From the UHGV virus genome UHGV-1378817: DNA of 64,000 nucleotides. The stretch is one strand, 5' to 3'. The position numbers were made by a program, and so were the translations under genes. Below, piece after piece: positions 3,252 to 33,323 of this stretch. This DNA is from a virus. The first letter of the stretch is position 1; each line of letters opens with the position of its first letter. The notes under the pieces were generated by a model, which had not been told where the DNA came from, ran no database searches, and was given only the letters and a program-made list of their open reading frames with translations.

Positions 3252-3255
3252 AATT

Positions 3256-12906: not shown

Positions 12907-13371
12907 GTGGAAGACGGACGTTTAATGAAGTCTGAACGCAGGCTTATTGTGCAACTGATCCCAGAAACAGCTTGGTATAATAACCTCCGAAACGCTGTGA
13001 AGAAGAGTGAGTGGGATAAGATCCGTAAGAAGTGCTACAGAGAAGCCAACTACACTTGTGAGGTGTGCGGCGGTAAAGGCAGCAAACATCCAGTGGAATG
13101 TCATGAACTTTACACTTTCGAAGAGGGAGTGATCCGGCTTGTCGGACTGATAGCGTTGTGCCCAGATTGTCACACATCTGTGCATCCTGGGTTAGCAAAT
13201 ATCCGTGGAAAGTATGCTCAGGCAGTTAGTCAGTTGGCTAAGGTGAATAAGATCACTAAGGGTATGGCAGAGGCGTATTACCGAGACTGCTTTGCAGAGT
13301 GGCGTGAGCTTAGTAAAGTTCCGGAATGGAAGACTGACTTTTCTTGGATACATCAGTATTTGGAGAGTTAA
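12907..13371 (+). CDS. HNH-family endonuclease
   Basis: Paired Cys/His motifs CEVCGG...HPVECHELY...CPDCHTSVH typical of HNH zinc-binding nucleases. Confidence 0.55.
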   Translation: MEDGRLMKSERRLIVQLIPETAWYNNLRNAVKKSEWDKIRKKCYREANYTCEVCGGKGSKHPVECHELYTFEEGVIRLVGLIALCPDCHTSVHPGLANIRGKYAQAVSQLAKVNKITKGMAEAYYRDCFAEWRELSKVPEWKTDFSWIHQYLES

Positions 13372-14228
13372 GTGTGGTATACTACAATGACAATGATAAA
13401 GATGCAGTTGCTTGGTTGAAGAATCTAATATCTTTAGGACTACTTCCTCAAGGCGAGGTGGATGATCGTTCTATTACAGAGGTTACTGTAGAAGATCTTA
13501 GAGGTTTCACTCAGTGGCACTTCTTCGCTGGCATAGGTGGATGGCCTTTGGCCTTGAAACTTGCTGGCATTCCAGAAACTTGGTCGGTATGCACAGGATC
13601 TCCGTGCTGCCAACCTTTCTCTCAGGCAGGTAAGCAACGTGGAAAATTTGACCCAAGACATCTTGCACCAACATACCTCCGGCTCGTTAAACAGCTTAAA
13701 CCTGAGTTCATGTTTGGAGAGCAGGTTGCAAAAGCGGTTGAATCTGGATGGCTCGACGATATGCAGAATGAAATGGAAAACTCTGGTTACAGCTTCGGGG
13801 CTTCCATACTTAATGCTGCAATCCTCAACGCCCCGCACCGCCGCGAACGACTTTACTTCGGGGCAGTTAGCAACGTGGTTAACCCCTACGGTAACTCAGG
13901 TAGGGTGCAGATCTCAGGAAGCGATGGAAAGGCGCAAGCAACAACGCTTAGCAACTGGCAGGAAGTCATTAAGTCCTGGGAATCTGTGGGAGCAGGTGAG
14001 GATGTATTACGGGTGTGGGAGCATACAAGACAGTATCTATGCCGAGACGGAAAATGGCGTAAACTTCCTGAACCCGGCATTCCCTTGTTGGTTGATGGGC
14101 TATCCACCCCAATGGGATTGTCTCGCCACAAAGGCTTCGGTAACGCTATAGTTCCGCAAATAGGGGCACTTTGGGTGCAAGAGTTTATGAAGTCAGTGGA
14201 TGATTGTGTAAGAGGTGAGTATGGCTAA
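13344..14228 (+). CDS. DNA (cytosine-5)-methyltransferase
   Basis: Motif I FFAGIGGW, motif IV GSPCCQPFSQAG (PCQ catalytic Cys), ENV-like FGEQVAKAV. Confidence 0.6.
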   Translation: MDTSVFGELSVVYYNDNDKDAVAWLKNLISLGLLPQGEVDDRSITEVTVEDLRGFTQWHFFAGIGGWPLALKLAGIPETWSVCTGSPCCQPFSQAGKQRGKFDPRHLAPTYLRLVKQLKPEFMFGEQVAKAVESGWLDDMQNEMENSGYSFGASILNAAILNAPHRRERLYFGAVSNVVNPYGNSGRVQISGSDGKAQATTLSNWQEVIKSWESVGAGEDVLRVWEHTRQYLCRDGKWRKLPEPGIPLLVDGLSTPMGLSRHKGFGNAIVPQIGALWVQEFMKSVDDCVRGEYG

Positions 14229-14511
14229 GAAACCTGTAAAAGAGAAATTTGATAAGACAGCTTTTGTATTCGATACACCTCTGGACGACATCATCAGAGG
14301 TATGCAATCCTTGTATCGGAAGGCTGAATCTGAGCAGTTGTCTGAATCAGAACTTTACTGGCTTGGTTGGTGGGAGTTAAACCTGCCTAAAGCTGAAAGT
14401 TCTTGTCTGAGAACTGTTAAAACGTGCGCCCAAGAAAACGCTGCACTTGGAATCTACCACAAAAGGAAAAGATCAACAAAAAGCTCTCCAAGAAAGACCA
14501 AAAAGTCTTGA
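14215..14511 (+). CDS. hypothetical protein
   Basis: 98-aa ORF with basic C-terminal tail. Confidence 0.35.
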   Translation: MSMAKKPVKEKFDKTAFVFDTPLDDIIRGMQSLYRKAESEQLSESELYWLGWWELNLPKAESSCLRTVKTCAQENAALGIYHKRKRSTKSSPRKTKKS

Positions 14512-14536
14512 CAAAAGTGTTATTAATCTGATATTA
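14508..14536 (+). promoter_or_regulatory. sigma70-like promoter
   Basis: TTGACA-17 nt-ATATTA, upstream of ORF 14571 with AGGAG RBS. Confidence 0.45.
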
Positions 14537-14570
14537 TCGGTCAGATATCTATAAACTAGGAGAACTAGAT

Positions 14571-14879
14571 ATGCTTAAAATTTTTATTGTTGAAGATAAA
14601 GATATTGTCCAGTTGTATGCAAACGAGAATCATAAAGGTATGATTCTGAAGAAGGCAAGCAACCTTCATGAAAACACAATTCAACCTGGCGATGTAATTA
14701 AGATCTGTGGTTATATGATATCAGACTCCTTGATGAAAATAACCCACCACTGGGGGTCTAATCCGTTCCTTTTTGAAAAGTATTGGGATGTTGAGTCACT
14801 TATTGCAGAGAGTGATGATGCATTCCATTACAGCATCCAACCATCTTGCAGAATAACTAACAGGAGGGTCTTTGAGTAG
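14571..14879 (+). CDS. hypothetical protein
   Basis: 102-aa ORF with its own promoter and RBS. Confidence 0.4.
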   Translation: MLKIFIVEDKDIVQLYANENHKGMILKKASNLHENTIQPGDVIKICGYMISDSLMKITHHWGSNPFLFEKYWDVESLIAESDDAFHYSIQPSCRITNRRVFE

Positions 14880-16011
14880 AGAATATCCACTTATTGAGTC
14901 CATAGATTGTCTGGCTGATCTTCTTGAACCTGACGCTATAGTTTATTATGACTTCGATCAAGTTGCATATCAAGCTGCAGCAAGTTGTGAAAAAAGGACA
15001 ATTGAGGTAACACACAAAGCCTCCGGACGTAAGAAGATGTTTAAAACACGAACAGAGTTCTGGGGGCGGCAGAAGAACACCGTTGGTGGTTGGTTAAAAG
15101 CTGAGAATACCAACCGTGAAGCTGCATGTAAAAAGGCTGGCAAGGAGTTTATTCCGTGGACACGAGAAGATTTCGATGTCTTGGATATCCAAACCCCTGA
15201 TCCTGTAGAGAACTGCTTGCACACAATTAAGTGTAAAGCTAATGCAGTCCTTAATTATCTCGGTATTCCGGAAGATCGGTGCGTGGGGGTACTTGGAGGC
15301 ACAGGTAATTTCAGACTAGATCTTCCCATGCCGGAAAGATATAAAGCCAACCGTAACAATACTCTTCGACCACTGCTGCTTGGAGATGCAAGACAGTATC
15401 TCCAAAAGCAGTATAATGCTCAAGTGATCAACGGTATCGAGGCTGACGACTGGTTAGCTATCCAGCAATTTGAAGGTTGGAACCACTACCAAAAAACAGG
15501 TAAGTTCAACAAGTTTATTATCTCTATTGATAAGGACCAAAGAACACTACCGGGGCTTGTGTTCGATCCCATGCGAAACGATAAGGGAGATTTTGTAAGA
15601 GAAACCCCTATGCTGATCGATAACGGTATGGGAAACATCTTCATGAAGCCTAATGGAGAGGTTGGTGGTTACGGAATGCTGTTCTTCGGATACCAAATGC
15701 TGTGTGGTGATTCTGCTGACAACATCAAGCCGTATCAGGGACTTATCGGTAAGGGTAAGTTCGGAGATGCCTCAGCATTCTACCTACTGTCTCAGTGCAG
15801 CACTCCAAAGGAGATGTGGATGGCTATTATTGATCAGTACAAGAAGTGGTTCCCGAAAGGTGTTGTTAAGTATACTGACTTCAATGGTATTGATCGTAGA
15901 ATTTCCGTAGGTCAATGGATGAGTATAATTTTTGACTGTTTGTATATGAAGCGAACATTCAATGATCAAACAAAACTTGTTAACGTTCTTAGAAATGTTG
16001 GAGCAATTTGA
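14872..16011 (+). CDS. 5'-3' exonuclease / flap endonuclease (FEN family)
   Basis: GIEADDWLA and LCGDSADNIKPYQGL match the 5'-nuclease motifs (EADD; GDxSDNIPG). Confidence 0.65.
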   Translation: MSREYPLIESIDCLADLLEPDAIVYYDFDQVAYQAAASCEKRTIEVTHKASGRKKMFKTRTEFWGRQKNTVGGWLKAENTNREAACKKAGKEFIPWTREDFDVLDIQTPDPVENCLHTIKCKANAVLNYLGIPEDRCVGVLGGTGNFRLDLPMPERYKANRNNTLRPLLLGDARQYLQKQYNAQVINGIEADDWLAIQQFEGWNHYQKTGKFNKFIISIDKDQRTLPGLVFDPMRNDKGDFVRETPMLIDNGMGNIFMKPNGEVGGYGMLFFGYQMLCGDSADNIKPYQGLIGKGKFGDASAFYLLSQCSTPKEMWMAIIDQYKKWFPKGVVKYTDFNGIDRRISVGQWMSIIFDCLYMKRTFNDQTKLVNVLRNVGAI

Positions 16012-16343
16012 TGACTAAAAATTCTGTAGATAACGCAATTATGGAAGCTGTTTTTGAGGATGATCACACAACAGGGACACTTAAAACAAAAAATACATTC
16101 GTTGTTGCCACAGGTATGTGGCGGTTGTATGAAGATGACACCATTTCATACATCCTGTACACGGATGATTACGCAGATGACCGTGTATGGTCTGCTGTTT
16201 TAAAAGAGGATTGTGAGCTGATTGAGGGCGAGCGGTTATGCATGTTCACCAGTGTGGAAACAGATGTTAAGCTTTGCTCTCTCGTATTGTTCAAAGATAA
16301 GGCTTATGCTCCTGATGAAGGAGAGGAGGATGAGGAAGCATGA
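16008..16343 (+). CDS. hypothetical acidic protein
   Basis: 111-aa ORF, C-terminal EGEEDEEA. Confidence 0.35.
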   Translation: MMTKNSVDNAIMEAVFEDDHTTGTLKTKNTFVVATGMWRLYEDDTISYILYTDDYADDRVWSAVLKEDCELIEGERLCMFTSVETDVKLCSLVLFKDKAYAPDEGEEDEEA

Positions 16344-16969
16344 GAGAGCGTCTATTATCCATAGACCAGTCGTTGACACACACAGCTTGCGTTGTATGGG
16401 ACGATGGAAAGCCTGTTCATAAGGTTGTGTTACGAACTCAAAGCTCATCTGCAAAAGAGAAGAAACCAGGGACGGTTTCTTTTGCAACAGCTGCTGAGCG
16501 TATTGACTGGATCTGCAAACAGGTCAGATATTATATCCACACGCACGGCGTTGACACCGTAGTTATGGAAGGGCTTTCCTTTGGATCACGCGGGGATGCC
16601 ACACGTGAACTGGCTGGGTTGTTTTACGGTCTTGAAGTTATGCTTTGGGATGCCTTAGCTGATTGTGAAAATGACGGCCTGTTTAAGGTCCACACAGTGA
16701 CACCAACAACTGCCAAAAAGTTTGCTCGTAGTCATCTTCCTGAGGAACTGGCTTTCGAGGAGAAGAAAAAGCTTGACAAAAAGACAGGTAAAGAGCATAC
16801 TGTGAAGAAACCTGTTACAATGGATAAAAAGTTGATGGTTAAGGCCTGCGAAGTATCTGAACCTGGGTTCCTAGATGGGATCAATTTGGTACAAGGTAAG
16901 GCCGATCTCGCAGATGCTTATTGGATAGGCAGGGCGCATCTGGAGGGATTATCGCAAAGCGTAAAATAA
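16340..16969 (+). CDS. putative RuvC-like (RNase H-fold) junction resolvase
   Basis: N-terminal LSIDQSLTHTACVVWD and later VVMEGLSFG resemble RuvC-type catalytic acidic residues; weak. Confidence 0.35.
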   Translation: MRERLLSIDQSLTHTACVVWDDGKPVHKVVLRTQSSSAKEKKPGTVSFATAAERIDWICKQVRYYIHTHGVDTVVMEGLSFGSRGDATRELAGLFYGLEVMLWDALADCENDGLFKVHTVTPTTAKKFARSHLPEELAFEEKKKLDKKTGKEHTVKKPVTMDKKLMVKACEVSEPGFLDGINLVQGKADLADAYWIGRAHLEGLSQSVK

Positions 16970-17526
16970 GAAAGAAAGCTGTCAAAGCCCCCGTTCATAA
17001 CGGGTGGTTAAAAGATTCTAAGGACATAGCCAACTTTCGAAAAGAATTGTCAGAGGAGCAGGATGGTCTTGATCCGATCTTGTGCGAGCCACTTCGTAAG
17101 CCTTGTTTGGATCATGACCATCTGACTGGTCGTTGCAGGGGTGTTTTGTCACAATGCACTAATACCTTTGAGGGGTATGTGCTTAAATACTGGATGAAAT
17201 ACTGTAACGAGTATACAGATTGCAGTTTATCAGAGGCGTTGCGCCGGATGGCTGACTATTTGGAGAAAGACTACAGCGACTTCCCGCTCCACAAAAACTA
17301 CAGAGATGATATGACAAAGTTCTTGAGGAGATGCTCTAAAGCTACGATCATTGCACGAGCAGAATCAGATCTCAATCTTGTCATTAATCCAGAGTGCACC
17401 AAGCATGAGGCTATTGAGTTCTACATGCAGGAGTTTATAAAGAAAACTGAGGAGAGAGATTTCTATGGGGATGAAAAAGGTATTCAATCCTTGCGACTCA
17501 GTCCTGATCAGGATGAAATACCGTAA
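16921..17526 (+). CDS. endonuclease VII-like nuclease
   Basis: CEPLRKPCLDHDHLTGRCRGVLSQCTN matches the Endonuclease_7 pattern (C...C..DHDH.TG..RG.LC..CN). Confidence 0.5.
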   Translation: MDRQGASGGIIAKRKIRKKAVKAPVHNGWLKDSKDIANFRKELSEEQDGLDPILCEPLRKPCLDHDHLTGRCRGVLSQCTNTFEGYVLKYWMKYCNEYTDCSLSEALRRMADYLEKDYSDFPLHKNYRDDMTKFLRRCSKATIIARAESDLNLVINPECTKHEAIEFYMQEFIKKTEERDFYGDEKGIQSLRLSPDQDEIP

Positions 17527-17698
17527 CTGGAAAGGTGTTGTTGCAGATCGCTGCGTTACTGAGCCTAATTTATGGTTTGGCTCTACAGAGTATCATAAAG
17601 AAGAGCAGTGGTTGATGCGTGCCTTCGATGTAGACAAGGGCGAATATCGTGACTTCGCTTTAAAAGACATTCTTCAGTTTTACTAAGGAATCTTAACG

Positions 17699-18682
17699 AT
17701 GATGACAAAGTTAACTCTTGAGCAAATTTTAACACTAAAGCAACAGGGATACACTAATAGACAAATTGCTCGTGAATTTTTAGGCCGTGAGTCACGTGAG
17801 AGCTGGATCCGACTACAGCTTAAACGTGCACAAGAGAATATGTCAGAGATTGTAGGAGAAGCAACGGAGCGCTTCCTTGAAGAGCACAAAGGTGCTAAAG
17901 TTTGGGTGTATGATACAGAGACATCTCCAACAAACGGCTGGTTCTTTGGGCACTATAAGACCAACATTCAAACCTGCGGTATTGAAATTATGCCCTACAT
18001 GCTAACTTTCGCAGGTAAGTGGTTAGACAGTCCTAGTGTGGTTGACTGCGCTCTTCCTGATTACAAAATGTGGGATGAGGATATTCACAATGATCTCGAA
18101 TTGATTCAGGATTTGTGGTATTATCTGGATACATGTGATGTCGCAGTAGCCCACAATTCAGGTTTTGACTGTGGGTGGGCCAACCAACGATTTGCATTTC
18201 ACGGATTGCCTCCAACAAGCCCCTACAAAGAGGTTGACACCCTTAAAATGATCAAGAAGGCATTCCGTTTGAATGCAAACACTTTGGAGTATGCATGCAA
18301 ATACTTCCAACTTGCCCGACAGAAACTGATTGACCACACATTTGAAATGTGGATCAAGTGTGTTCACGGTGATCTTGAGGCGTTTAAACAGATGCGGGAG
18401 TACAATGTTGGCGATATCCTATCTCTGGAAGGCCTGTATTTGCTGGCTCGCCCGTTTGCTAAGCAGCACCCCAACATGTCATTGTACTACCAGGATGAGG
18501 AGCCAAAAGTTCGTTGCCCACGCTGTGGTGGAGAACACCTTCACGAGGAAGAAGCTTTGGCGTATACTCAACTGAGTGCATTTAAAACATACCGCTGCGA
18601 AGGTTGTGGATCTGTTGTTCGTGACCGTAACAACATCCGCACCAGAGAAGAAATGAAAAATACCCTGATTCAGATAATCTAA
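17699..18682 (+). CDS. DEDD-family 3'-5' exonuclease with C-terminal zinc ribbon
   Basis: Exo I VYDTETS, Exo II AHNSGFDCG, Exo III YNVGD; C-terminal CPRCGG...CEGCG. Confidence 0.55.
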   Translation: MMTKLTLEQILTLKQQGYTNRQIAREFLGRESRESWIRLQLKRAQENMSEIVGEATERFLEEHKGAKVWVYDTETSPTNGWFFGHYKTNIQTCGIEIMPYMLTFAGKWLDSPSVVDCALPDYKMWDEDIHNDLELIQDLWYYLDTCDVAVAHNSGFDCGWANQRFAFHGLPPTSPYKEVDTLKMIKKAFRLNANTLEYACKYFQLARQKLIDHTFEMWIKCVHGDLEAFKQMREYNVGDILSLEGLYLLARPFAKQHPNMSLYYQDEEPKVRCPRCGGEHLHEEEALAYTQLSAFKTYRCEGCGSVVRDRNNIRTREEMKNTLIQII

Positions 18683-18690
18683 CAATTATA

Positions 18691-18714
18691 GGGAGGCTTG
18701 CGCCTCCCTTTTCC
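18691..18714 (+). terminator. putative rho-independent terminator
   Basis: GGGAGGC-ttgc-GCCTCCC followed by TTTTCCTTTT, directly after the stop of ORF 17699-18682. Confidence 0.5.
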
Positions 18715-18727
18715 TTTTGGAGGCACT

Positions 18728-19546
18728 TTGAGCAAGAAAGAGTCCAACGACAAATACTACACAAACCCTGAGTATGCAGAATATCTTGTTGGTAAAGTAA
18801 AAGATAAGTATGGGAATTGTGCATACGTTGAGCCTTCTGCTGGAAGGGGTTCTTTTTCAAAACTATTTTCAGAGATACTGTCGTACGATTTAGTACCAGA
18901 TCCTGAATTTGAAGGACCAACACCGTGCATTCAGGCAAACTTCTTGGAGGTGCATCCCAAGGCAGATGTCTTCATAGGTAACCCACCATTTGGCAAGAAT
19001 TCATCCTTAGCTTGCAAATTCTTTAACCATTGTGCATCATTGCTAGAGCTTGGAGGGGCTATAGCCTTCATCTTGCCACGGACATTTGAAAAAATATTTT
19101 TTGCAAACAAACTGGACATGTCGATGCACCTTGTCTACAGCGAAAGGTGCCCTAAGAATTCGTTTTTACTTAATGGCAAACCTTATGACGTGCCATGTGT
19201 TTTCCAAATTTGGGAGAAAAAGGCGTGCAATAGGGATCCTGTAGAGATTGGAGAGAATAAGTTATTTTCTTTTAGCACACCAGATGACTACGACTTCTGT
19301 GTAAGACGTGTTGGGTATAATGCTGGAAAAGTATTGGGGGATGATGACCCAAAATCTGAAGAATCAACATATTTCATAAAATCTTTAGTTAACGGTGTTG
19401 ACAGAGTGTTTGCTGAATGCTATTCTTCTTTTCAAGAAGAAGCAGGTAAGACTGCTGGAATGAAGAGTATAGGTAAGAAAGAACTACAATACATTTTGGA
19501 GACCAGGTATGATCAAAAGCATAGACTTGACCAAAGAACTTACTGA
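18728..19546 (+). CDS. DNA N6-adenine methyltransferase
   Basis: Motif I EPSAGRGSF and motif IV IGNPPFG. ORF-track start at 18698 lies inside the terminator hairpin; a TTG near 18728 with GGAGG RBS is more plausible. Confidence 0.55.
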   Translation: MSKKESNDKYYTNPEYAEYLVGKVKDKYGNCAYVEPSAGRGSFSKLFSEILSYDLVPDPEFEGPTPCIQANFLEVHPKADVFIGNPPFGKNSSLACKFFNHCASLLELGGAIAFILPRTFEKIFFANKLDMSMHLVYSERCPKNSFLLNGKPYDVPCVFQIWEKKACNRDPVEIGENKLFSFSTPDDYDFCVRRVGYNAGKVLGDDDPKSEESTYFIKSLVNGVDRVFAECYSSFQEEAGKTAGMKSIGKKELQYILETRYDQKHRLDQRTY

Positions 19547-19967
19547 TGCAAAAGCTTTTGGTGAGACAGCGGTACAAAGAGGACAGGCGATGGGACTGGC
19601 ACTACCTTTCGTCTTAAAAGAGCACTTTACAGATTTTCAACTTATCAAAGGTGATAAGGGAATGCTTATCCTGGAGCATAAGTTGAGTAAGAAACGCTAT
19701 AAAGTCGTTTTTAATTCTAAAGCTCCAACAAAACTGGGATTCAGAACTTACAATCTTAACCCTTCCTACACTAAGGGTGTTGGAAGGGTAGAACAACAGC
19801 ATTTCAGTGCCAGAGCTTCTTTAGCCCCTTTGATGCTAAATTTCTCAGGGGTGGCTTTAGGATACCTTGATAAGAAAAGGGTTCTTCATGTTCGTTTCAC
19901 AGACTTTGTAACGCTTTTAGCTAACAACGAGGTTGATGAGAAGGGACGTGTAAAAACAAACTTCTAA
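19509..19967 (+). CDS. hypothetical protein
   Basis: 152-aa ORF downstream of the methyltransferase. Confidence 0.4.
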   Translation: MIKSIDLTKELTDAKAFGETAVQRGQAMGLALPFVLKEHFTDFQLIKGDKGMLILEHKLSKKRYKVVFNSKAPTKLGFRTYNLNPSYTKGVGRVEQQHFSARASLAPLMLNFSGVALGYLDKKRVLHVRFTDFVTLLANNEVDEKGRVKTNF

Positions 19968-19982
19968 TAACGCATAGTATGA

Positions 19983-20186
19983 TTGGAGACCGAAATGACA
20001 CTAGAGTTAACAATTCCAGACAGCTTTTCAGAAAACTTTATCCCAGAAATGATGAGTAAGATGCGATCATTGCTTGATCAGATTGAGGAGGCTGTTTGGG
20101 AAGACGATGCTGTAGTGGCTAACGAGCTGGTAGATAAGTGTAAAAGTATTATTGATGCAGTTGAAGAATACCACGGAGGTTTTTAA
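19983..20186 (+). CDS. hypothetical acidic protein
   Basis: 67-aa ORF coupled to the downstream gene. Confidence 0.35.
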   Translation: METEMTLELTIPDSFSENFIPEMMSKMRSLLDQIEEAVWEDDAVVANELVDKCKSIIDAVEEYHGGF

Positions 20187-21387: not shown

Positions 21388-21388
21388 A

Positions 21389-22572: not shown

Positions 22573-22601
22573 TCCTATCACAGTGATAGGTAACTTTTGT
22601 G

Positions 22602-22630: not shown

Positions 22631-22631
22631 A

Positions 22632-25685: not shown

Positions 25686-25690
25686 TTTTA

Positions 25691-25711
25691 AAGGGGCTTC
25701 GGCCCCATTTT
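25691..25711 (+). other. GC hairpin between nrdA and nrdB
   Basis: GGGGC-ttcg-GCCCC followed by ATTTT, between the nrdA stop and the nrdB RBS. Confidence 0.35.
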
Positions 25712-25723
25712 AGAGGTAGAATA

Positions 25724-26812
25724 ATGGCTGTATTTAATGCTGAGAACACCGCTCATAAAACTGGTGACTATCCGCTGTTTCTGGGACAGCAAATGGGTAT
25801 GTACGATTCTATCAACAAAAAATATCCACAACTGTTTGAACTATACAAAAAACAAAAAGAGCAAGATTGGGCAGAGGATGAAGTGGATTTGTCGCAATCT
25901 ATTTCAGATTTTGTAACATGCTCAAAGTCAACTTATGACGTGATGGTGCAGACCTTGATGTGGCAATGGGAGGCTGATAGCGTTGCGGCAAGATCGATCA
26001 TCTGCCTCTTTTCACCATTCATCACTAATAGTGAGCTTTTCACTCTATTGATGAAACAGTCGGAGATTGAAGTTCTTCACGCACTAACTTACTCAGAGAT
26101 TGTTAGACAATGCCTCCCCAATGCCCGTGAGATTATAGAAGAGATTCAGGAAAACCAAAACGTTCTGAGCAGATCCGGCGTTATTGTCAAATACATGCAA
26201 GAGCTTGAGGTTATTGGTGCAAAATACCGACTGGATCCTTCTAGTGTTGAAGAAGATGTTGTGCGGAAATGCATTCTTAGAGCGCTTTTTGCACTTTTAG
26301 CTCTGGAAAGTATTGAGTTTATTGCAAGTTTTGCATGCACTTTTGCAGTAGCTGAACAGGGTATCTTTGTTCAGGTGGCGCAGCTTGTTCAAAAAATCAT
26401 GCTTGACGAAATGCTACATTCGAAAGGGGATTTTGCCATCATTGATATCCTGCTTAATGATCCCGCATGGGAGAAAAGCTTCCTTGAGATAAAGGGGGAG
26501 TTAAAAGAGATTCTTGATGAAGTACGAACCAAAGAGTACGGTTGGAGTGACTATATTTTCAGCGAAGGAAGAGCGATTATAGGTCTTAACTCCCCGTTGC
26601 TTAAAGAGTGGGTTGACTATAACTGCTCACCGATTTATGATTACTACGACATCGACAAAGACTTTGTGCCGCCAACAAAGGACCCGCTACCGTTTATGCA
26701 GGTGTGGATGAAACCTTCATTGCAACAGACGGCGAACCAAGAAATGTCGAACACTGACTACCGCGTCAACACAACTGTTAACGACGCTGAAGAAGAAATT
26801 TGGGAGTTTTAA
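25724..26812 (+). CDS. nrdB: ribonucleotide reductase class I small subunit
   Basis: ORF 25664-26812 trimmed to Met MAVFNAENTAHK with RBS; position and size fit a di-iron R2 subunit. Confidence 0.7.
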   Translation: MAVFNAENTAHKTGDYPLFLGQQMGMYDSINKKYPQLFELYKKQKEQDWAEDEVDLSQSISDFVTCSKSTYDVMVQTLMWQWEADSVAARSIICLFSPFITNSELFTLLMKQSEIEVLHALTYSEIVRQCLPNAREIIEEIQENQNVLSRSGVIVKYMQELEVIGAKYRLDPSSVEEDVVRKCILRALFALLALESIEFIASFACTFAVAEQGIFVQVAQLVQKIMLDEMLHSKGDFAIIDILLNDPAWEKSFLEIKGELKEILDEVRTKEYGWSDYIFSEGRAIIGLNSPLLKEWVDYNCSPIYDYYDIDKDFVPPTKDPLPFMQVWMKPSLQQTANQEMSNTDYRVNTTVNDAEEEIWEF

Positions 26813-26815
26813 TAT

Positions 26816-27094
26816 ATGAGCTGCGAAAAATCTTTTTTCATCATCATTTACGGTAAGGATAACTGCCCACATTGTGTCAGAGCAAAAGAATTTGCAATCA
26901 GCAAAGGTCTGCCTTTTGTATATAAGACACTTGGCGAGGGCTACACAAAAGAAGAGCTTATTGAGAAGTGCAGTCCAATTGTCCCTAGAACGTTGCCGCA
27001 GATCTTCTTAGAAAGCGATCTTGACAGTGTCCATATAGGCGGTGCCGACGATTTCATCTCTTTTGTTAAGAATGGTTTTGGAGAGAAAAAGTGA
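26816..27094 (+). CDS. glutaredoxin / NrdH-like redoxin
   Basis: 92 aa with CPHC active-site motif (GKDNCPHCVRAKEF). Confidence 0.55.
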   Translation: MSCEKSFFIIIYGKDNCPHCVRAKEFAISKGLPFVYKTLGEGYTKEELIEKCSPIVPRTLPQIFLESDLDSVHIGGADDFISFVKNGFGEKK

Positions 27095-29214
27095 AAGTTG
27101 TAAAACGGGACGGTAGAGAAGAGTTCTATAACGGAATTAAGGTGATCAAGGCGGCAGAGTCCGCCTTACTTGAGTCTGGGCATACTGAAGAAGAAGCTTA
27201 CCGGATCGCCTGCGCGGTTAATGAAGTTGTTGCTAACAATCTACCAACCGACCAGTGCACGATCTCTGTAAAAAATATCCATATCCTTGTTGAAGATGCT
27301 CTTATGGATATGGGTTTAAAATGTGCAGCCAGAGAATACATCCAGTATAGACAGACAAGAGATAATAACAGAGAGGCAGGTGGAAAACTGCTTGCAGATA
27401 TTAGTGGCTTCTTGGATCGAACTTGTGATGAATTTACAAAAGAAAACGCAAATAAGCCTACTAATCATGTACACACTCATCGCGACCTGCTTGCGGGTAT
27501 TCTTAGCAAACACCTTGCATCAACACAGATCCTGCCAGACCGTGTCTCCGAAGAGCACAATAAGGGCTTCATCCATGTGCATGATCTTGACTACTTGATC
27601 AGTCCGTTAACAAACTGTTGTTTGGTAAACTATCCAGATATGTTGGAAAACGGATTCAACATTGGTAACGCCCATGTCAGTAAGCCGAAGTCAATAGGGG
27701 TTGCAACAACAATCCTTAGCCAAATCTCTAGTGCGGTAGCTAGTGCTCAATATGGTGGTCAGACTATGAGCCATATTGATCATTATCTGGCACAGTATGC
27801 TGAAGCAACCTATGAGAAGAACCTTAAATTTTGCCAGGAACATTGGTTGCCAGATGCTGAGAGTGTTGCAATGCAAATGACAGATAAAGACGTATTTGAC
27901 AGCATGCAGACTTTGCTCTATCAAATCAATACGTTAACTTCTGTCAACGGGCAAACTCCATTCATCACATTGAGTTTAGGACTGGATACCTCGGTCTTTG
28001 GTAGAATGATTACCAAAAACTACCTGAAAGTCCACAAAATGGGTCTTGGTGAAGAACGTATTACACCTGTGTTTCCTAAAGTGCTGTTCTTCCTAGAAGA
28101 GGGTGTCAACATGAACCCTGGGGATCCTAACTATGATTTGAAACGATTAGCTCTGGAATGCTGTGCAGAACGTATCTACCCTGACTTCGTGTCTGTACCA
28201 CTAAATAGAAAAGTGACAGGCTCGACAGATGGCAAAGTAACGAGCATGGGTTGCCGGAGTTTTCTTAGCAAATACAATGACTTGGAAACAGGCGAGGAGA
28301 AATATCTTGGCAGATTTAACTTAGGCGTTGTTAGCCTTAACCTGCCAATGATTGCGGCAAAAGCTAAGACGGAAGGTGTTGATTTCTTTGCAGTTCTTGA
28401 CGAATACTTGGATCTTGCATACGAGGCTCACCTTGTAAGGGTTAATCGTCTAAAAGGAACAAAGGCAGGGCAGAACCCCATCATGTGGTGTGAAGGCGCT
28501 CTTGCTCGCCTGGATCCTGAAGAGAGTATTGATAAACTCTTCTATGACGGGTACGCTTCCATCAGTATTGGGTATATCGGTGTGTATGAAACCTGTCAGA
28601 TTTTGGGTAGAGAGGGTGACAAGGCTTTAGCTCTTGGAATCCTTCAGCACATGAGAGATGCTTGTGAGCGATACAAGAAGGAAAGTAGACTAGCATTTAG
28701 CTTGTACGGCACTCCTTCTGAGAGTCTATGCTATAAAGCTGCAACCTGTCTGGATCGTGAATATCCGGAAGTGTTAAAGCACGATCATGAATATCTCACC
28801 AACAGTTTCCATCAGCCAGTATGGATAAATAGCTCTCCTTTTGATAAGTGGGAGTATGAGGAAGGTTTTGCTATGATCTCCTCTGGTGGCAACATCGGAT
28901 ACGTAGAGACACCTAACCTGAAAAACAACCTGGATGCTTTAGAGGCTCTTGTTGACTTCGGGTATAAACACATTATGTATTTTGGTATTAACCAACCTGT
29001 GGATAAATGTCTCAAGTGCGGTTTCTCTGGTGAGTTCAGTGCAACAGCTAAAGGCTTTGTATGCCCAGAGTGTGGAAACCATGAAGAGGGAACGATCAGT
29101 GTAATTCGACGTGTGTCTGGATACCTTTCCAGTCCTAACTCCCGTCCTTACAATAAAGGTAAGCAAGCGGAAGTTATCGAGCGAGTTAAGCACTACGGAA
29201 GTTGTGGTTGCTGA
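27091..29214 (+). CDS. nrdD: anaerobic ribonucleoside-triphosphate reductase
   Basis: 707 aa, GTG start; C-terminal glycyl-radical motif RVSGYL and Cys cluster CLKCG...CPECG. Confidence 0.85.
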   Translation: MKVVKRDGREEFYNGIKVIKAAESALLESGHTEEEAYRIACAVNEVVANNLPTDQCTISVKNIHILVEDALMDMGLKCAAREYIQYRQTRDNNREAGGKLLADISGFLDRTCDEFTKENANKPTNHVHTHRDLLAGILSKHLASTQILPDRVSEEHNKGFIHVHDLDYLISPLTNCCLVNYPDMLENGFNIGNAHVSKPKSIGVATTILSQISSAVASAQYGGQTMSHIDHYLAQYAEATYEKNLKFCQEHWLPDAESVAMQMTDKDVFDSMQTLLYQINTLTSVNGQTPFITLSLGLDTSVFGRMITKNYLKVHKMGLGEERITPVFPKVLFFLEEGVNMNPGDPNYDLKRLALECCAERIYPDFVSVPLNRKVTGSTDGKVTSMGCRSFLSKYNDLETGEEKYLGRFNLGVVSLNLPMIAAKAKTEGVDFFAVLDEYLDLAYEAHLVRVNRLKGTKAGQNPIMWCEGALARLDPEESIDKLFYDGYASISIGYIGVYETCQILGREGDKALALGILQHMRDACERYKKESRLAFSLYGTPSESLCYKAATCLDREYPEVLKHDHEYLTNSFHQPVWINSSPFDKWEYEEGFAMISSGGNIGYVETPNLKNNLDALEALVDFGYKHIMYFGINQPVDKCLKCGFSGEFSATAKGFVCPECGNHEEGTISVIRRVSGYLSSPNSRPYNKGKQAEVIERVKHYGSCGC

Positions 29215-29217
29215 TTC

Positions 29218-29247
29218 TTGACAAAAGCCACAAGGATGTGGCATATT
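29218..29247 (+). promoter_or_regulatory. sigma70-like promoter
   Basis: TTGACA-18 nt-CATATT just after nrdD; a second TTGACA follows. Confidence 0.35.
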
Positions 29248-29277
29248 ATTGACACACAGTGAGCTAGGAGGTGCAGT

Positions 29278-29391
29278 ATGTCATCAGGTATTTATAAAAT
29301 TTGCAAGTGCGGCTGTAGTTGCAATCTTCGTTGGTGCAAGGCACTAGACGATTTTATTTGGCATTGCCCTAAATGTGATGCGGAGTATCTA
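29278..29391 (+). CDS. small Cys-rich zinc-ribbon-like peptide (~37 aa)
   Basis: MSSGIYKICKCGCSCNLRWCKALDDFIWHCPKCDAEYL; AGGAGG RBS; stop overlaps the nrdG ATG (ATGA); below the ORF-track size cutoff. Confidence 0.4.
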
Positions 29392-29864
29392 TGAACATTG
29401 TCGGATACACAGAAATATCTTACACCGAAGGGCCAGGTATTAGAACTGCCTTGTGGGTATCTGGGTGCCCACACGCTTGCCCTGGTTGCTTTAATCAGGC
29501 ATTTTGGTCAAAAGATAAGGGGAGGGAGTTCACTGAAGAAGACTTGCAAAAAATCTTGTCAGATTTAGATAACCCGTCTGTGTGCGGTATCTCTCTACTG
29601 GGTGGAGAACCCTTAGCATACTATAATGAGCCAGATATTATTAGCCTGATGGAGAAAATTAAGGAAAAATTTGGTGACAAGAAAACTATTCTTGTATATA
29701 CTGGGTTCACATTTGACCATATCTCTAGTGATGTTCTTAAACTGGCTGATATCATCATTGACGGTAAGTATGTAAAAGATTTACCAACCAAGAAACCGTT
29801 CAGAGGCAGTGATAACCAAAGAATGTTTAAAAAAGTATCAGGCGGTTGGGTTCAGGTAGACTAG
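29391..29864 (+). CDS. nrdG: anaerobic ribonucleotide reductase activating protein (radical SAM)
   Basis: CPHACPGCFN radical-SAM CxxxCxxC cluster; directly follows nrdD. Confidence 0.8.
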   Translation: MNIVGYTEISYTEGPGIRTALWVSGCPHACPGCFNQAFWSKDKGREFTEEDLQKILSDLDNPSVCGISLLGGEPLAYYNEPDIISLMEKIKEKFGDKKTILVYTGFTFDHISSDVLKLADIIIDGKYVKDLPTKKPFRGSDNQRMFKKVSGGWVQVD

Positions 29865-29867
29865 TTG

Positions 29868-29897
29868 TTGACAAAGCTTTGTTGAGTTGGTTATAAT
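29868..29897 (+). promoter_or_regulatory. strong sigma70 consensus promoter
   Basis: TTGACA-18 nt-TATAAT, then GAGGAGG RBS and ATG at 29927. Confidence 0.55.
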
Positions 29898-29926
29898 TGC
29901 CGTAATGAAAGCAGAGGAGGTGCAAA

Positions 29927-30040
29927 ATGGCTAAAAAAGCCTTGAAGAAGGCGTACAAGAAAGAGATTGCGCTTGAGCTTAAGAAAAAACACAAGCGTGA
30001 AAAGAAACATCATGAAGATGAAGAGGGGGTGCAACAGTGA
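29927..30040 (+). CDS. small lysine-rich basic protein (~37 aa)
   Basis: MAKKALKKAYKKEIALELKKKHKREKKHHEDEEGVQQ; stop overlaps the GTG start of ORF 30037 (GTGA). Confidence 0.4.
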   Translation: MAKKALKKAYKKEIALELKKKHKREKKHHEDEEGVQQ

Positions 30041-30387
30041 CACAAGAACGTATCGATTTGGCTAATAAGTTTGTAGACCTCATTTTGCCACGGTTAGTTA
30101 CTCAACATGCAGATGCTATTTCTACTAATCTTGATGGCTTACGCCTAATGCTGAATCGCACAGATGACCCTCGTATTCGGGCTGATTTAGAAGCCTCTGC
30201 CAACAAACTGGAAAAGTTCTTGCAAGTAGACACGCAAGAAGCCTTGCACAAGATTATGGTGGAAGGTTTCTCTAAAGAATTTACCATTAAAGAGCTTAAG
30301 GAGCTGATCCACCAAGAAGAGATGAATATCCGAGTTCAGGCTGTTGCAAGCAGCATGGAAGCGGCTATTGAAAAACTGTTGCAGTAA
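30037..30387 (+). CDS. hypothetical protein
   Basis: 116-aa ORF coupled to the upstream small ORF. Confidence 0.4.
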   Translation: MTQERIDLANKFVDLILPRLVTQHADAISTNLDGLRLMLNRTDDPRIRADLEASANKLEKFLQVDTQEALHKIMVEGFSKEFTIKELKELIHQEEMNIRVQAVASSMEAAIEKLLQ

Positions 30388-30425
30388 AAGTACTTGGCAC
30401 ATCTCAATCTGAAAGGAGTCCCAAC

Positions 30426-31214
30426 ATGGGTCGAGCTAAAGAAACAAAACGCATGCGTGATGAAGCTAGAGAGGCTCGCAAATCTGATCGCCTGCGTAAG
30501 GCTGCTGAGAAATTTGCTGACGAACGAGAGCACACTGCTCCAGCTCTCCGACCAATGAATAAGAAGCAGCAAAAGTATCTTGATTATCTAGGGTCACGTA
30601 AGATTATTATTGTAAACGGTGTGTTTGGATCCGGTAAGACATTCATGGCATCTGCATATGCAGGTGATCTTCTGCGTAAGAACGAGATTGATAAGATCAT
30701 TGTTGCACGTCCTTACGTTCAGACAGGAAAGACTTCAGGATTTAAACCTGGAAATGCAATGCAGAAATTGTGGCCCTATCTTCGAAGCATGATGGACACG
30801 ATTTGTCGTCGTGTTGGCAAAGGTGCTTTTGCCGCAATGCTGGGAGACGGTCAGAACAGCCGTATCGAGATTTGTGAAGTTGAAAGCATTCGTGGTCGTA
30901 GTTTCGATGAGCGATGCTTTGTCCTGATTGACGAGGCACAGCAAACTAACCCTGAAGAAATGTTGTCAATTATCACAAGGATCTCTGATCAAGCCACCCT
31001 TGTAATTATGGGTGATAATAGCCAACGTGACATCCCTGGTAAATCTGGCCTTGCATGGGTGACGGATTTCTTTACTCGTCATCCAGATCCTGAGGTTGGA
31101 ATGATCAGCTTTGATAGTCCAGACGATGTCGTTCGTTCCGGGTTGGGTCGTCAGATCGCACTCAATCTTATTGAGGATCGTGCAAATCATATTTGGACCC
31201 CTGTTTCCGAGTAA
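30426..31214 (+). CDS. phoH: PhoH-like ATPase
   Basis: Walker A GVFGSGKTF, Walker B-like VLIDEAQ, overall PhoH layout. Confidence 0.75.
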   Translation: MGRAKETKRMRDEAREARKSDRLRKAAEKFADEREHTAPALRPMNKKQQKYLDYLGSRKIIIVNGVFGSGKTFMASAYAGDLLRKNEIDKIIVARPYVQTGKTSGFKPGNAMQKLWPYLRSMMDTICRRVGKGAFAAMLGDGQNSRIEICEVESIRGRSFDERCFVLIDEAQQTNPEEMLSIITRISDQATLVIMGDNSQRDIPGKSGLAWVTDFFTRHPDPEVGMISFDSPDDVVRSGLGRQIALNLIEDRANHIWTPVSE

Positions 31215-31219
31215 TACAG

Positions 31220-31240
31220 AAGGGTGGTTATTCCACCCTT
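31220..31240 (+). terminator. putative terminator hairpin
   Basis: AAGGGTGG-ttatt-CCACCCTT followed by AAAAT, after phoH. Confidence 0.35.
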
Positions 31241-31259
31241 AAAATGTCTAAAACGGTTG

Positions 31260-31288
31260 TTGACAAATAGGTAAGCTTTAGATATTAT
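31260..31288 (+). promoter_or_regulatory. sigma70-like promoter
   Basis: TTGACA-17 nt-TATTAT upstream of ORF 31317. Confidence 0.5.
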
Positions 31289-31316
31289 TATCGGACAAAA
31301 CAGAGAGAAGGACAGT

Positions 31317-31628
31317 ATGGCTACAATACAAGAGAAACTGAATAAAATATACTGCCTGTTTGTCTATAACGGCGAGACAATTTTGGCAAATAAAGGATCC
31401 AAGAATGTGTGGATCAAGGACAGCGGTGGTAACATAATTAACTTAGCGTTGCTACGTGAGCGCCGACACAGATTCTTTATCGAGTCTCGAATTATTGAAA
31501 GCAGCACTTGCTACAGAACAGGCGATAAAGTAATTGTTGACAATGATACGTGGTATGTGGTAGACTGGCAATCATTGAGTTGTGATGCTTCTGACAATCG
31601 TAAGTATTCCATAGTGATTGCTAAATAA
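31317..31628 (+). CDS. hypothetical protein
   Basis: 103-aa ORF. Confidence 0.4.
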   Translation: MATIQEKLNKIYCLFVYNGETILANKGSKNVWIKDSGGNIINLALLRERRHRFFIESRIIESSTCYRTGDKVIVDNDTWYVVDWQSLSCDASDNRKYSIVIAK

Positions 31629-31688
31629 AGGTAAATGTGAATCAGGTTTAAATAAATAGCTTTCAACTTCCAATATTAAGGATTTCTC

Positions 31689-32738
31689 ATGAATTTAACA
31701 CCTCGCAGCACCATGGTACACGGCATGAAAGAAAAACAGAACGGTTTCGAACCTATGAGTAATAAAATGTTTGGTATGCCGGGCGGTATTATGGAAACAT
31801 ACAGCTACCCAACACCTGTTGTTGACCACGTTCTTTATATCGACGATTTGGAGGACCTGCAGGATCATATGTCTCGTCTGCAGACGATTCGTATGGCTCA
31901 GCCGGAAGAAAGCATTCGCGTGATCATCAATAGCCCCGGGGGTTGCGTGCACATTGCAATGGCTTATCTGCAGGCATTCCGCGAGTCTCAGGCAAGCGTT
32001 GTTGCACATGCTGAAGGGATGTGCTGCTCTGCTGGAACAATCTTATGGCTTGGTTGCAAAGAACGTACTGTGGCTCCGGACACAGAATTTATGTTCCACT
32101 ACTATCAAGGTGGCACTTATGGTAACGGTGTTAACATGAATATTCAGGTCAGCTACTGGAAAAAACGTTTTGAACACCTGATCGAAAAATACTACGGTGG
32201 GGTGCTGACAGAAGATGAGATCGCATCCATCACAGCTGGTGGCGAAGTGTGGTTGGACGGAGAAGAGTTGGCAGCACGTACTGGAGCTATTATTCTGGAT
32301 GAAGGTAACATACAACGCATCCAGAATGGACAAAAACCGAAAAAGCTTCTGGCAAAAGGGGATGAAGAAGGCGTGTTAGGTGAAGCAGGTCTTCCGGAGA
32401 TTCACCAGTGCACCTCTTTAGATGAGTTAGTTCATGCTGTTGAATCTGCAAAAGCGGGTGGTTCGAAAGGTGATGTTCACACTGTGTTCCTGAACCTGCA
32501 GATGGAAAGTGGTGAGACCGTTAAGATTGCCTTAGGTGAGATCACCTCAGAAGATTTGCAGCGATTCTCTGTTGTTGAACTTCAAGACATTCTGTCCCAA
32601 TTGAAGACAACCCTGAACGGCGGTGAAGAGGTTAAGGTAAAAGATAAGACTCGTAAGCGTCTGGTGGACAATATTATTAAAACAGCAAAAGAGCTTAATG
32701 AAAAAATCCTGGGTGCAGGAATTGTCGAAGAAGCTTAA
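31689..32738 (+). CDS. ClpP/S14-family serine protease homolog with long C-terminal extension
   Basis: VIINSPGG and GMCCSAGT match ClpP-type motifs; about 150 extra C-terminal residues. Confidence 0.5.
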   Translation: MNLTPRSTMVHGMKEKQNGFEPMSNKMFGMPGGIMETYSYPTPVVDHVLYIDDLEDLQDHMSRLQTIRMAQPEESIRVIINSPGGCVHIAMAYLQAFRESQASVVAHAEGMCCSAGTILWLGCKERTVAPDTEFMFHYYQGGTYGNGVNMNIQVSYWKKRFEHLIEKYYGGVLTEDEIASITAGGEVWLDGEELAARTGAIILDEGNIQRIQNGQKPKKLLAKGDEEGVLGEAGLPEIHQCTSLDELVHAVESAKAGGSKGDVHTVFLNLQMESGETVKIALGEITSEDLQRFSVVELQDILSQLKTTLNGGEEVKVKDKTRKRLVDNIIKTAKELNEKILGAGIVEEA

Positions 32739-32750
32739 ACATTAATTCTA

Positions 32751-32772
32751 AAGCCCTCTTCGGAGGGCTTTT
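32751..32772 (+). terminator. putative rho-independent terminator
   Basis: GCCCTC-ttcg-GAGGGC followed by TTTT. Confidence 0.5.
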
Positions 32773-32789
32773 ATGATCTGGAGATTTGC

Positions 32790-33323
32790 ATGACTTGTGC
32801 TAGAAAACCTGATGAACAACGTAACGCCTACGACGAGTATGTGACACCGGAGTGGTGTGCAGAAGGGCTGTATGACCTTATTCCGTTCCCAGAAGACTGG
32901 ACCTACTTAGAGCCTTGCAGGAATAGTGCCTCAGGTGTGTTTTACTCCCGTATGCCGTTAGGATCTGCATGGGGAGAAATCCAAGAAGGTGTTGACTATC
33001 TGAATACAGAATACAACCATGTTGACTGTATTATCACCAACCCACCATACAGCCTAGCTCGTGAGTTTGTAGACAAGGCGTTGAAAGATGCTGACGTAGT
33101 TATTATGCTTTTGCGTCTTAATTTTCTGGAAAGCAAAGCCAGATTTGAATGGTGGCTTGATAATGCACCCACTACTGTGATCACAATATCTAAGCGTCCA
33201 TCATTTCAATCAAATGGTAGAACTGACGGGCAAGCATATGCGTATTTTGTGTGGGATAAGAAAAACCGTTTAGGCTTGCCGCCATTTATGTGGTTGGCAC
33301 CACCAGAGGTGGACCTGAAATGA
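32790..33323 (+). CDS. DNA N6-adenine methyltransferase (small)
   Basis: Catalytic motif ITNPPYS; 177 aa. Confidence 0.55.
   Translation: MTCARKPDEQRNAYDEYVTPEWCAEGLYDLIPFPEDWTYLEPCRNSASGVFYSRMPLGSAWGEIQEGVDYLNTEYNHVDCIITNPPYSLAREFVDKALKDADVVIMLLRLNFLESKARFEWWLDNAPTTVITISKRPSFQSNGRTDGQAYAYFVWDKKNRLGLPPFMWLAPPEVDLK

Follow-up and report, generated by a model that had tools for sequence, protein, structure and literature searches.

When a phage carries several DNA methyltransferase genes and no matching restriction enzyme, what do these genes protect against, and do the nuclease genes beside them belong with them? This question is raised by 64,000 nucleotides of DNA from UHGV virus genome UHGV-1378817 (the window, by which we mean the whole of this stretch). 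The window encodes a C5-cytosine methyltransferase (hereafter C5), two amino-methyltransferases of 272 and 177 residues with NPPF and NPPY motifs, respectively, and an HNH-family nuclease directly upstream of C5. A preliminary description took the three methyltransferases as a sign of broad self-methylation against host restriction and proposed a homing or restriction-like pairing between HNH and C5. We find that the four open reading frames (ORFs), all on the plus strand, are real, with family matches far above chance in Pfam, PHROG, and PADLOC, and that no cognate restriction gene adjoins any of the three methyltransferases. Comparison with related genomes indicates that these are three solitary, independent genes, each with its own evolutionary history. 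The probable explanation, in our judgment, is that each provides narrow, sequence-specific methylation, and that the HNH nuclease is not a partner in it.

The window is closely related to known phages of Escherichia coli. When bases 12000-20000 were compared with phage records by megablast, 123 records matched, and the best full-length matches, at 97.8% identity over 8 kb, were Escherichia phages pangalan, CarlMeissner, HdK5, and Alma, all of the genus Vequintavirus. The annotation of CarlMeissner is colinear with the window over a stretch that begins with the DNA ligase gene, takes in the nucleotide reductase genes, and ends with the ClpP-like protease gene. By these matches, the window represents the replication and nucleotide-metabolism arm of a Vequintavirus, that is, an rV5-like E. 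coli myophage. All four genes are 98-100% identical to annotated Vequintavirus genes (rV5, CarlMeissner, and pangalan). In CarlMeissner (Bas48; MZ501054), they appear in the same order as bas48_0208 (HNH), bas48_0207 (C5), and bas48_0198 and bas48_0176 (both N6-adenine), and relatives label them “putative homing endonuclease,” “putative C5-cytosine-methyltransferase,” and, twice, “putative N6 adenine methyltransferase.” The published counterparts in rV5 (NC_011041), CarlMeissner, pangalan, HdK5, and Alma are 97.8-100% identical and show no material difference from the window, which appears on this basis to be a further isolate or assembly of a small C5-positive Vequintavirus clade. The genes are thus already known and annotated in dozens of public rV5-like genomes; the rV5 genome paper makes no mention of methylases. 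Papers on Certrevirus and Septuagintavirus report adenine and cytosine methylases, and the Certrevirus paper describes the cytosine enzyme as variably present (PMC7344957, PMC11370258). A six-frame motif scan of the window returned no further methyltransferase-like motif in a real ORF, and the idea of an additional methyltransferase elsewhere in the window was dropped.

The HNH gene behaves as a core gene. It most likely starts at ATG 12925, as relatives annotate it, and not at GTG 12907, and occupies 12925-13371 on the plus strand (148 residues; phrog_5200, E = 2.2e-71). Its protein has the pattern CxxC...CHE...CxxCH, in which C45xxC48, H60 (of CHE), and C79xxC82-H83 are invariant among the 4 orthologues compared; judged by eye, the position of the central Asn appears to be held by Gly74. 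No Pfam model matches it, the HNH models included, and there are weak matches to the HNH domains of ZorE and IscB. A tblastn search recovers the gene from 240 phage records, one copy in each, at 95-98% identity within Vequintavirus and 45-51% in Seunavirus, Certrevirus, and allies. This cross-genus identity resembles that of other core genes, and the distribution points to a single-copy core gene across the Vequintavirinae. In Seunavirus and phage TH18, HNH opens a conserved block that continues with a 5' exonuclease gene, two ORFs, and EndoVII. We suggest that the protein would serve as a conserved core nuclease within this recombination-gene block (5' exonuclease, EndoVII) and not as the partner of a methyltransferase. 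HNH occurs without C5 in 119 of the 123 close relatives (~97%), and also in other genera; therefore, it is not the restriction partner of C5. Nor does it show the sporadic presence among close relatives that marks free-standing homing endonucleases, as every relative has one copy.

The C5 gene has a different distribution. It lies at 13374-14228 on the plus strand and encodes 284 residues (PF00145, 72.7 bits; phrog_363, E = 1.8e-59). Its start is most likely GTG 13374, with GGAG 8 nt upstream, and not TTG 13344: an 80%-identical orthologue (P0002) has ATG at exactly this codon, and relatives also annotate the gene from there. The HNH and C5 starts given in the preliminary description are thus replaced, while its coordinates for the two amino-methyltransferases (18728-19546 and 32790-33323) are correct. 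With the HNH stop at 13371, the two genes are 2 nt apart. The overlap that had been reported between them is an artefact of choosing the start of the longest ORF, and we rejected it as a sign of coupling.

Junction alignment with the “empty” allele of phage JohannBauhin defines C5 as part of an accessory insert of ~870 bp (13351-14220, plus strand). The insert takes the place of the final 13 nt ahead of the original HNH stop region and brings both a new HNH tail and the C5 gene. Its left breakpoint, at ~13350/13351, falls within the last HNH codons, where the tail IEGYLDG-stop becomes IHQYLES-stop. On the right, the breakpoint immediately precedes 14221; there, ATGGCTAA is restored and the downstream gene keeps its start. 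In the window, this start (of orf96) overlaps the C5 stop, while in insert-free genomes it overlaps the HNH stop; in JohannBauhin, the next gene accordingly follows HNH directly, with the same overlap. The insert is rare: 117 records match the 8-kb query, most as two pieces totalling 89%, with the C5 gene as the gap between them. The gene itself turns up in only 4 phage records (4/123 related genomes), at 98.9% identity. Its GC content is 0.484 vs 0.428 for the window. More distant C5 homologues (~68% DNA identity) occupy other sites and have no HNH gene beside them, between nrdA and nrdB in Krischvirus and near a phosphoesterase gene in Seunavirus. Alone among the three methyltransferases, C5 thus appears to be a rare accessory add-on that moves between phages.

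The same cassette is found in a second lineage of the Vequintavirinae. The 80%-identical orthologue lies on metagenomic contigs (L013-L015), directly after an HNH orthologue of 59% identity. TH18 and three other phages, the nearest in the databases (96% nucleotide identity), lack just that ~860 bp, and in them HNH abuts the exonuclease gene. Between the window and contig L013, the flanking core proteins are 42-58% identical and the C5 protein is 79% identical; therefore, C5 has moved laterally. The HNH gene of L013 is chimeric (L013 3566-4864 compared with TH18, L017 4069-4506). It is TH18-like (~96% nucleotide identity) up to ~nt 380 and beyond that point has a Vequintavirus-type tail, with KEWKTDFSW instead of the QEWELDVSY of TH18. 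The cassette NEVERTHELESS thus moves together with the HNH 3' end, and the transferred unit is the HNH tail plus C5. In both lineages, presence or absence of C5 is polymorphic among near-identical genomes, always at the HNH 3' end. The simplest account of these alignments would be one ancestral insertion followed by spread through recombination, with HNH as the left homology arm. Under this account, the cassette would have inserted a few codons before the HNH stop, would be cotranscribed with HNH, and would have spread between lineages by recombination.

Gene content between HNH and the 5' exonuclease gene also varies more widely. Seunavirus and TH18 have a tight junction; additional genes lie there in Vequintavirus (orf96 and orf102, with or without C5), and additional HNH genes in the Certrevirus PcCB7V (L021-L023; window 13371-14872). 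This variation suggests that the junction is a local hotspot of gene gain.

These patterns bear on the homing idea of the preliminary description, which survives as a weak possibility: in each of two divergent lineages, the C5 cassette is attached to the HNH 3' end, and an HNH tail moved with it. In its explicit form, HNH tail and C5 would be a homing-type mobile unit, in which copying of C5 into coinfecting relatives that lack it is driven by the HNH nuclease or by a break that this enzyme makes close to the 3' end of its own gene. Such a unit would fit the presence of a conserved C5 at exactly this position between much more divergent flanks and its polymorphism in both lineages. The switch of tail at ~nt 380 in L013 resembles a co-conversion tract, and the extra genes at the junction in other genera would fit as well. 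However, HNH is present in donor and recipient alike, and an enzyme that cuts the empty site would also cut the genome encoding it in the 97% of phages without C5. The gene is fixed and not sporadic, distant C5 homologues have no adjoining HNH, and the cassette is rare (~3-6%), unlike a driving element. A single ancestral insertion and ordinary recombination would, moreover, give the same pattern. We therefore regard homing by this unit as unlikely, and prefer solitary methyltransferases with separate histories.

The C5 protein is a recognizable but unusual member of its family. It matches PF00145 far above the cutoff (E = 4.7e-20; 72.7 bits vs 22), with only profile positions 62-163 of 324 aligned, and scores below the cutoff of TIGR00675 (54.8 vs 100.65). 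We identify motifs II-III (residues 3-37), motif I as FFAGIGG (50-56), motif IV as SPCCQ (76-80), GEQV (115-118), HRRER (155-159), and GNAIVP (256-261); the variable region is short. Within motif I, G53 and G56 are invariant in 41 homologues. In motif IV, Cys79-Gln80 is conserved and the preceding residue is Cys78, not the usual Pro. The motifs FAGIGG, NPPF, and NPPY stand as they were first described, whereas the reported “PCQ” is in fact S-P-C-C-Q. SPPCQ is found in 116 of 120 C5 family representatives and SPCCQ in 2, namely the window protein and its 80%-identical orthologue; that the two share this variant suggests that it is tolerated. Motifs VI, VIII, and X are present as GEQV (E116 invariant), HRRER (R157 and R159 invariant), and GNAIVP, and the substitutions of Asn by Gln in VI and of Gln by His in VIII are family-wide. 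The family is large, with at least 4969 homologues, many of them on phage-sized contigs or in enterobacterial prophages.

The order of these motifs is not the canonical I to X. In the alignment with M.HhaI, the N-terminal block YYNEWDK...VDERSITEV resembles motifs II-III (YSNEWDK...GDITQV), and motif I (FFAGIGGW) and motif IV follow it, which gives the order II-III-I-IV-VI-VIII-X. All seven motifs occur in this order in 105 of 120 homologues, and none has them in another order. We examined the arrangement by swapping residues 1-41 and 42-67 in silico (residues 1-67 correspond to window 13374-13580), with deletion of residues 1-41 as the control. The swap raised the PF00145 score from 72.5 to 98.4 bits (+26) and extended the aligned profile range from 63-163 to 5-163. 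It also raised the match to M.HhaI from 52.4 to 73.3 bits (+21), as a single contiguous alignment. The control deletion gave no gain. In the AlphaFold2 (AF2) model, a strand-helix-strand unit precedes the motif I strand; the predicted local distance difference test (pLDDT) score of the whole model is 67.8, with 79-90 across residues 1-50. Among solved structures, M.HhaI and M.HaeIII are the best matches both in sequence and in fold. We conclude from the alignments that the motif order of this family represents a local, noncircular swap that is family-wide. No description of a II-III-I-IV arrangement in C5 methyltransferases was found in the literature.

Taken together with the distribution of the cassette, this raises a broader possibility: that a core-gene HNH spreads adjacent anti-restriction cargo across divergent Vequintavirinae, with the cargo drawn from this large permuted-order C5 family. 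We hold this to be doubtful.

The 272-residue protein is encoded by a solitary gene of gamma-class type (18728-19546, plus strand; PADLOC MTase_II PDLC03255). A terminator-like hairpin (18690-18709, plus strand; 8-bp stem with 6 GC pairs and a T-rich tail) lies between this gene and the DnaQ-like exonuclease gene upstream of it. The start at ATG 18728 is upheld because the upstream TTG 18698 falls inside this hairpin. The motifs are YYTNP (residues 10-14), EPSAGRGSF (35-43), and NPPF (85-88), and a conserved C-terminal domain spans residues ~165-272. The protein thus shows the gamma-class order X-I-IV followed by a conserved domain of ~100 residues. It matches the REBASE-derived Type II methyltransferase model of PADLOC over nearly its full length (PDLC03255; E = 3.3e-34, residues 8-253 against model positions 2-249 of 269). 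Nothing above threshold was found for it in Pfam or NCBIfam (Pfam Eco57I, E = 0.013; N6_Mtase not significant), and none among PDB sequences. The AF2 model is confident (pLDDT 92.9), and its fold matches are TrmN (the top match), M.TaqI, the M subunit of the Type I enzyme StySJI, M.BseCI, and CamA, all through the catalytic domain only; the query TM-scores for M.TaqI, M.BseCI, and CamA are 0.39-0.49. The NPPF motif is compatible with N6-methyladenine, N4-methylcytosine, and RNA m6A products alike.

The bacterial relatives of this protein offer a clue to its origin. Two bacterial homologues (P0239 and P0216), at two unrelated loci, have small ORFs within 10 nt downstream. These ORFs encode 227 and 199 residues, both begin with M-x-x-x-QSHG-x-x-FE, and they are homologous to each other (E = 4e-5; L008 5001-6471 and L010 4001-5404). 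Both weakly match the PADLOC model REase_II PDLC03460 (E = 1e-5 and 6e-4) and also phrog_6892. In these bacteria, the methyltransferase homologue and its small ORF look like a compact Type II restriction-modification (RM) family that Pfam does not cover. A PDB sequence search with the candidate restriction enzymes, for clues to specificity, found nothing. The phage ORF downstream of the 272-residue gene is unrelated to them; as a possible decayed restriction enzyme, this ORF (19509-19967, 3' of the methyltransferase gene) was rejected, with a 14-residue match only and a different PHROG. Two results, the match along the full PADLOC Type II model and the presence of candidate restriction-enzyme neighbors in bacteria, shift the balance toward a DNA substrate for the 272-residue enzyme. 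They led us to down-weight a reading of the protein as an RNA methyltransferase, which had been prompted by the lack of Pfam, NCBIfam, and PDB-sequence matches, by names given to its homologues, and by profile matches to METTL5 and Ta1320. We interpret the phage copy as a solitary derivative of the methyltransferase of a Type II system, with adenine in DNA as its predicted target. Its family is one of small Type II methyltransferases, and the phage copy would have lost, or never had, a restriction partner. The gene is present in ~121 Vequintavirus records and, at 54% identity, in Phapecoctavirus; our distribution search did not find it in Seunavirus or Certrevirus.

The 177-residue amino-methyltransferase has yet another history. 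Its gene (32790-33323, plus strand; phrog_799 “DNA methyltransferase,” E = 5.5e-67) lies directly 3' of the ClpP-like protease gene. The protein has YVTP (residues 17-20), which is of the gamma-type YxTP, a degenerate glycine loop, EPCRNSASG (41-49), and NPPY (84-87), and leaves no room for a target-recognition domain. The rV5 protein is 100% identical to it and those of Seunavirus and Certrevirus are 59-66% identical; in every case the gene adjoins the protease gene. The homologues are found in phage replication modules and have no restriction partner. Despite similar size and the shared NPPY motif, the enzyme should not be filed under PF05869 (Dam) or TIGR01712, where it scores below threshold (19.2 bits vs 28.1 and 16.1 vs 97.05, respectively); the Pfam EcoRI_methylase model is also under threshold. 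Against PDB, the best match of the family profile is M.TaqI (2.9e-5), with Erm rRNA methyltransferases close behind (5e-5). Its activity is most likely DNA adenine methylation, as far as its motifs and matches can be read. The gene is core to the subfamily and would have been inherited vertically; its product belongs to a phage-specific family with no recognizable target-recognition domain.

Several observations weigh against reading all three genes as active DNA methyltransferases of narrow specificity. In the C5 protein, the Pro that almost invariably precedes the catalytic Cys is replaced by Cys, and the motif order of the family is noncanonical; its activity could be reduced. For the 272-residue protein, the best PDB sequence matches of the family profile, which are weak, are to Ta1320 and METTL5-like RNA methyltransferases, and some sources label its homologues “predicted RNA methylase.” The assignment of the bacterial neighbor ORFs as restriction enzymes is weak, at the E-values given above. 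For the 177-residue protein, the glycine loop is degenerate and the profile match to Erm nearly equals that to M.TaqI. No methylome or restriction-digest data on rV5-like phages were found in the literature, and activity, product, and target are predictions.

Part of this evidence could indicate that at least one of the two amino-methyltransferases has an RNA substrate (tRNA or rRNA) or works outside defense, for example in replication, packaging, or gene timing. The RNA methyltransferase matches of both profiles would fit this, as would the first place of TrmN in the fold search with the 272-residue model and the annotation of the 177-residue protein as TrmN6 in one record. The phage also encodes its own tRNAs, and both genes are conserved although these phages stay restriction-sensitive. 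On the other side, the 272-residue enzyme fits a Type II DNA methyltransferase model along its length, and its bacterial homologues have candidate restriction-enzyme neighbors. Both proteins carry the gamma-class YxTP N-terminal motif, as does M.TaqI, and the family of the 177-residue protein sits in DNA replication modules. We think an RNA or nondefense role improbable, and keep to solitary enzymes that would methylate DNA.

How far such methylation might protect the phage can be judged from published plating data. Vequintavirinae in the BASEL study, which included CarlMeissner and several relatives, were “exceptionally susceptible” to RM systems, and its authors conclude that the group lacks effective RM protection (PMC8594841). 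CarlMeissner carries all three methyltransferase genes at 98-99% identity. The raw data of the same study (PMC8594841) give its efficiency of plating as 4e-4 to 1e-3 on EcoRI, 0.02-0.09 on EcoCFT_II, and 0.09-0.56 on EcoPI, with no plaques on EcoRV. EmilHeitz, which is without the C5 gene, has the same EcoRI and EcoRV values (PMC8594841). C5 thus makes no difference to the systems tested in this comparison. The window holds 8 GAATTC and 19 GATATC sites. Adenine methylation within an EcoRI or EcoRV site blocks cutting. The strong restriction of CarlMeissner by EcoRI and EcoRV therefore shows that the adenine enzymes are not promiscuous.

These data bear directly on the proposal that several orphan methyltransferases provide broad self-methylation, shielding the phage from restriction generally. 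The gene content would seem to favor it, as there are three methyltransferase-type genes of two chemistries and no cognate nuclease. A phage with all three genes is nevertheless restricted 1e3-fold by EcoRI and fully by EcoRV, and also by EcoCFT_II, and those who tested the group found it without effective protection. On the systems examined, the proposal largely fails, and we consider general shielding very unlikely. We instead suggest that each enzyme would methylate one short specific sequence on replicating phage DNA. Methylation of this kind would guard against host Type II systems of matching specificity and would give no blanket protection, so that the benefit would vary with the host's set of Type II systems.

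Least credible of all is that HNH and C5 form an RM-like or toxin-antidote pair, in which HNH cuts unmethylated DNA and C5 protects the phage: the genes are adjacent, 2 nt apart, and probably cotranslated, and the HNH of one relative is labelled a methylcytosine-specific restriction endonuclease, but nuclease and methyltransferase do not co-occur as in a Type II RM pair, since HNH is a core gene found in 240 records, nearly all close relatives and all other genera carry it without C5 and are viable, and the C5 homologues of Krischvirus and Seunavirus lack HNH.

The sequence composition of the window was also considered as a clue to specificity. GTAC (125 observed/197 expected), CTAG (67/120), ACGT (141/190), and GAGCTC (3/11.7) occur less often than Markov expectation, which does not hold for GATC and CCWGG. 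The bias may reflect past avoidance of restriction sites and not methylation, and we set it aside as too indirect to use.

The rarity of C5 might have its own cause. McrBC and McrA are methylation-dependent nucleases, and 5-methylcytosine exposes DNA to such nucleases. The rarity of the C5 gene would probably stem from this exposure of the phage to McrBC and McrA. The BASEL isolation host is without RM systems. The near-isogenic C5-positive and C5-negative phages of the BASEL collection offer a natural comparison of what C5 gains and costs.

More broadly, the presence of several methyltransferase genes does not predict restriction resistance, as these phages rank with the most restriction-sensitive of the tested coliphages. 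Restriction sensitivity despite methyltransferase genes is relevant to the choice of phages for therapy. The C5 family, with its unusual motif order, also bears on how the S-adenosylmethionine (AdoMet) site of a Rossmann fold can be rewired.

Other features surround these genes. A consensus scan finds a sigma-70-like promoter match (TTGACA-17-TATTGT, with TG) at 12631-12659 on the plus strand, as a pattern match only. It is followed by orf68 (12691-12897, plus strand; phrog_4641, E = 2.1e-28), a conserved hypothetical gene that is also hypothetical in CarlMeissner and is the first gene of the operon. The conserved hypothetical gene orf96 (14221-14511, plus strand; phrog_6208, E = 1.1e-45) is defined by the annotation of relatives and the junction alignment. 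Promoter-like sites at 12631 and 14508, from the same scan, flank a small operon of orf68, HNH, C5, and orf96. Upstream of the 272-residue gene, the DnaQ-like 3'-5' exonuclease (17699-18682) has a C-terminal zinc-ribbon-like segment (residues ~265-312), for which Pfam matches are weak and sub-threshold only. ARAGORN predicts a 99-nt tRNA with a four-base anticodon (atcc) at 2763-2861 on the minus strand, among six normal tRNAs in a cluster at 2518-3330. The corresponding cluster of CarlMeissner has an annotated 97-nt “tRNA-Lys,” and the 99-nt tRNA could be intron-bearing or otherwise atypical. Some 20 records under the name “Campylobacter phage” (e.g., C15, A142, D1, and A138) share ~98% identity with E. 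coli Vequintavirus genomes, which points to a mislabelled host or to contamination in these records.

It is nothing unusual for large lytic phages to carry orphan methyltransferases. Solitary phage DNA methyltransferases include T4 Dam, T1 Dam, and P1 Dmt, and the small Dam enzymes of HP1 and VT-2 (PF05869) are without a target-recognition domain. The genes described here resemble them in standing alone in the replication region of a lytic phage; a difference is that the relatives of the window phage stay restriction-sensitive. The 177-residue enzyme is like the HP1 and VT-2 enzymes in size and in its NPPY motif, and differs from them in falling under the thresholds of their families. Type II RM systems with a small gamma-class methyltransferase (PDLC03255 and PDLC03460) are the closest comparison for the 272-residue enzyme, which aligns over the whole methyltransferase model. 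In bacteria, the gene for a candidate restriction enzyme follows the methyltransferase homologue immediately, whereas the phage locus has no homologue of that enzyme.

The T-even free-standing homing endonucleases (Seg and Mob proteins) co-convert flanking markers. HNH-C5 resembles these systems in the pairing of a nuclease gene with a variable neighbor and in the transfer of a short donor-type flank along with the insert. Unlike them, HNH is fixed in all relatives and not sporadic, and the variable element is the neighbor, not the nuclease. C5 itself shares motifs I, IV (Cys-Gln), VI (Glu), VIII (Arg-x-Arg), and X with M.HhaI and M.HaeIII (PF00145). It differs from both in that motifs II-III precede motif I, in having GEQV for ENV, HxRxR for QxRxR, and PCCQ for PPCQ/PCQ, in its very short variable region, and in having no partner restriction enzyme. 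In a 2018 survey, all natural permuted C5 methyltransferases in REBASE have motifs IX-X first (PMC5944983), and the search criterion of that survey would have missed a local II-III-I-IV swap. M.BssHII, M.Alw26I, M2.Eco31I, M.Esp3I, and M2.BsaI share a noncanonical motif order with C5. The M.BssHII-type permutations are circular, with IX-X ahead of I-VIII (PMC5944983), whereas the order in the C5 family is consistent with a local, noncircular exchange of II-III and I.

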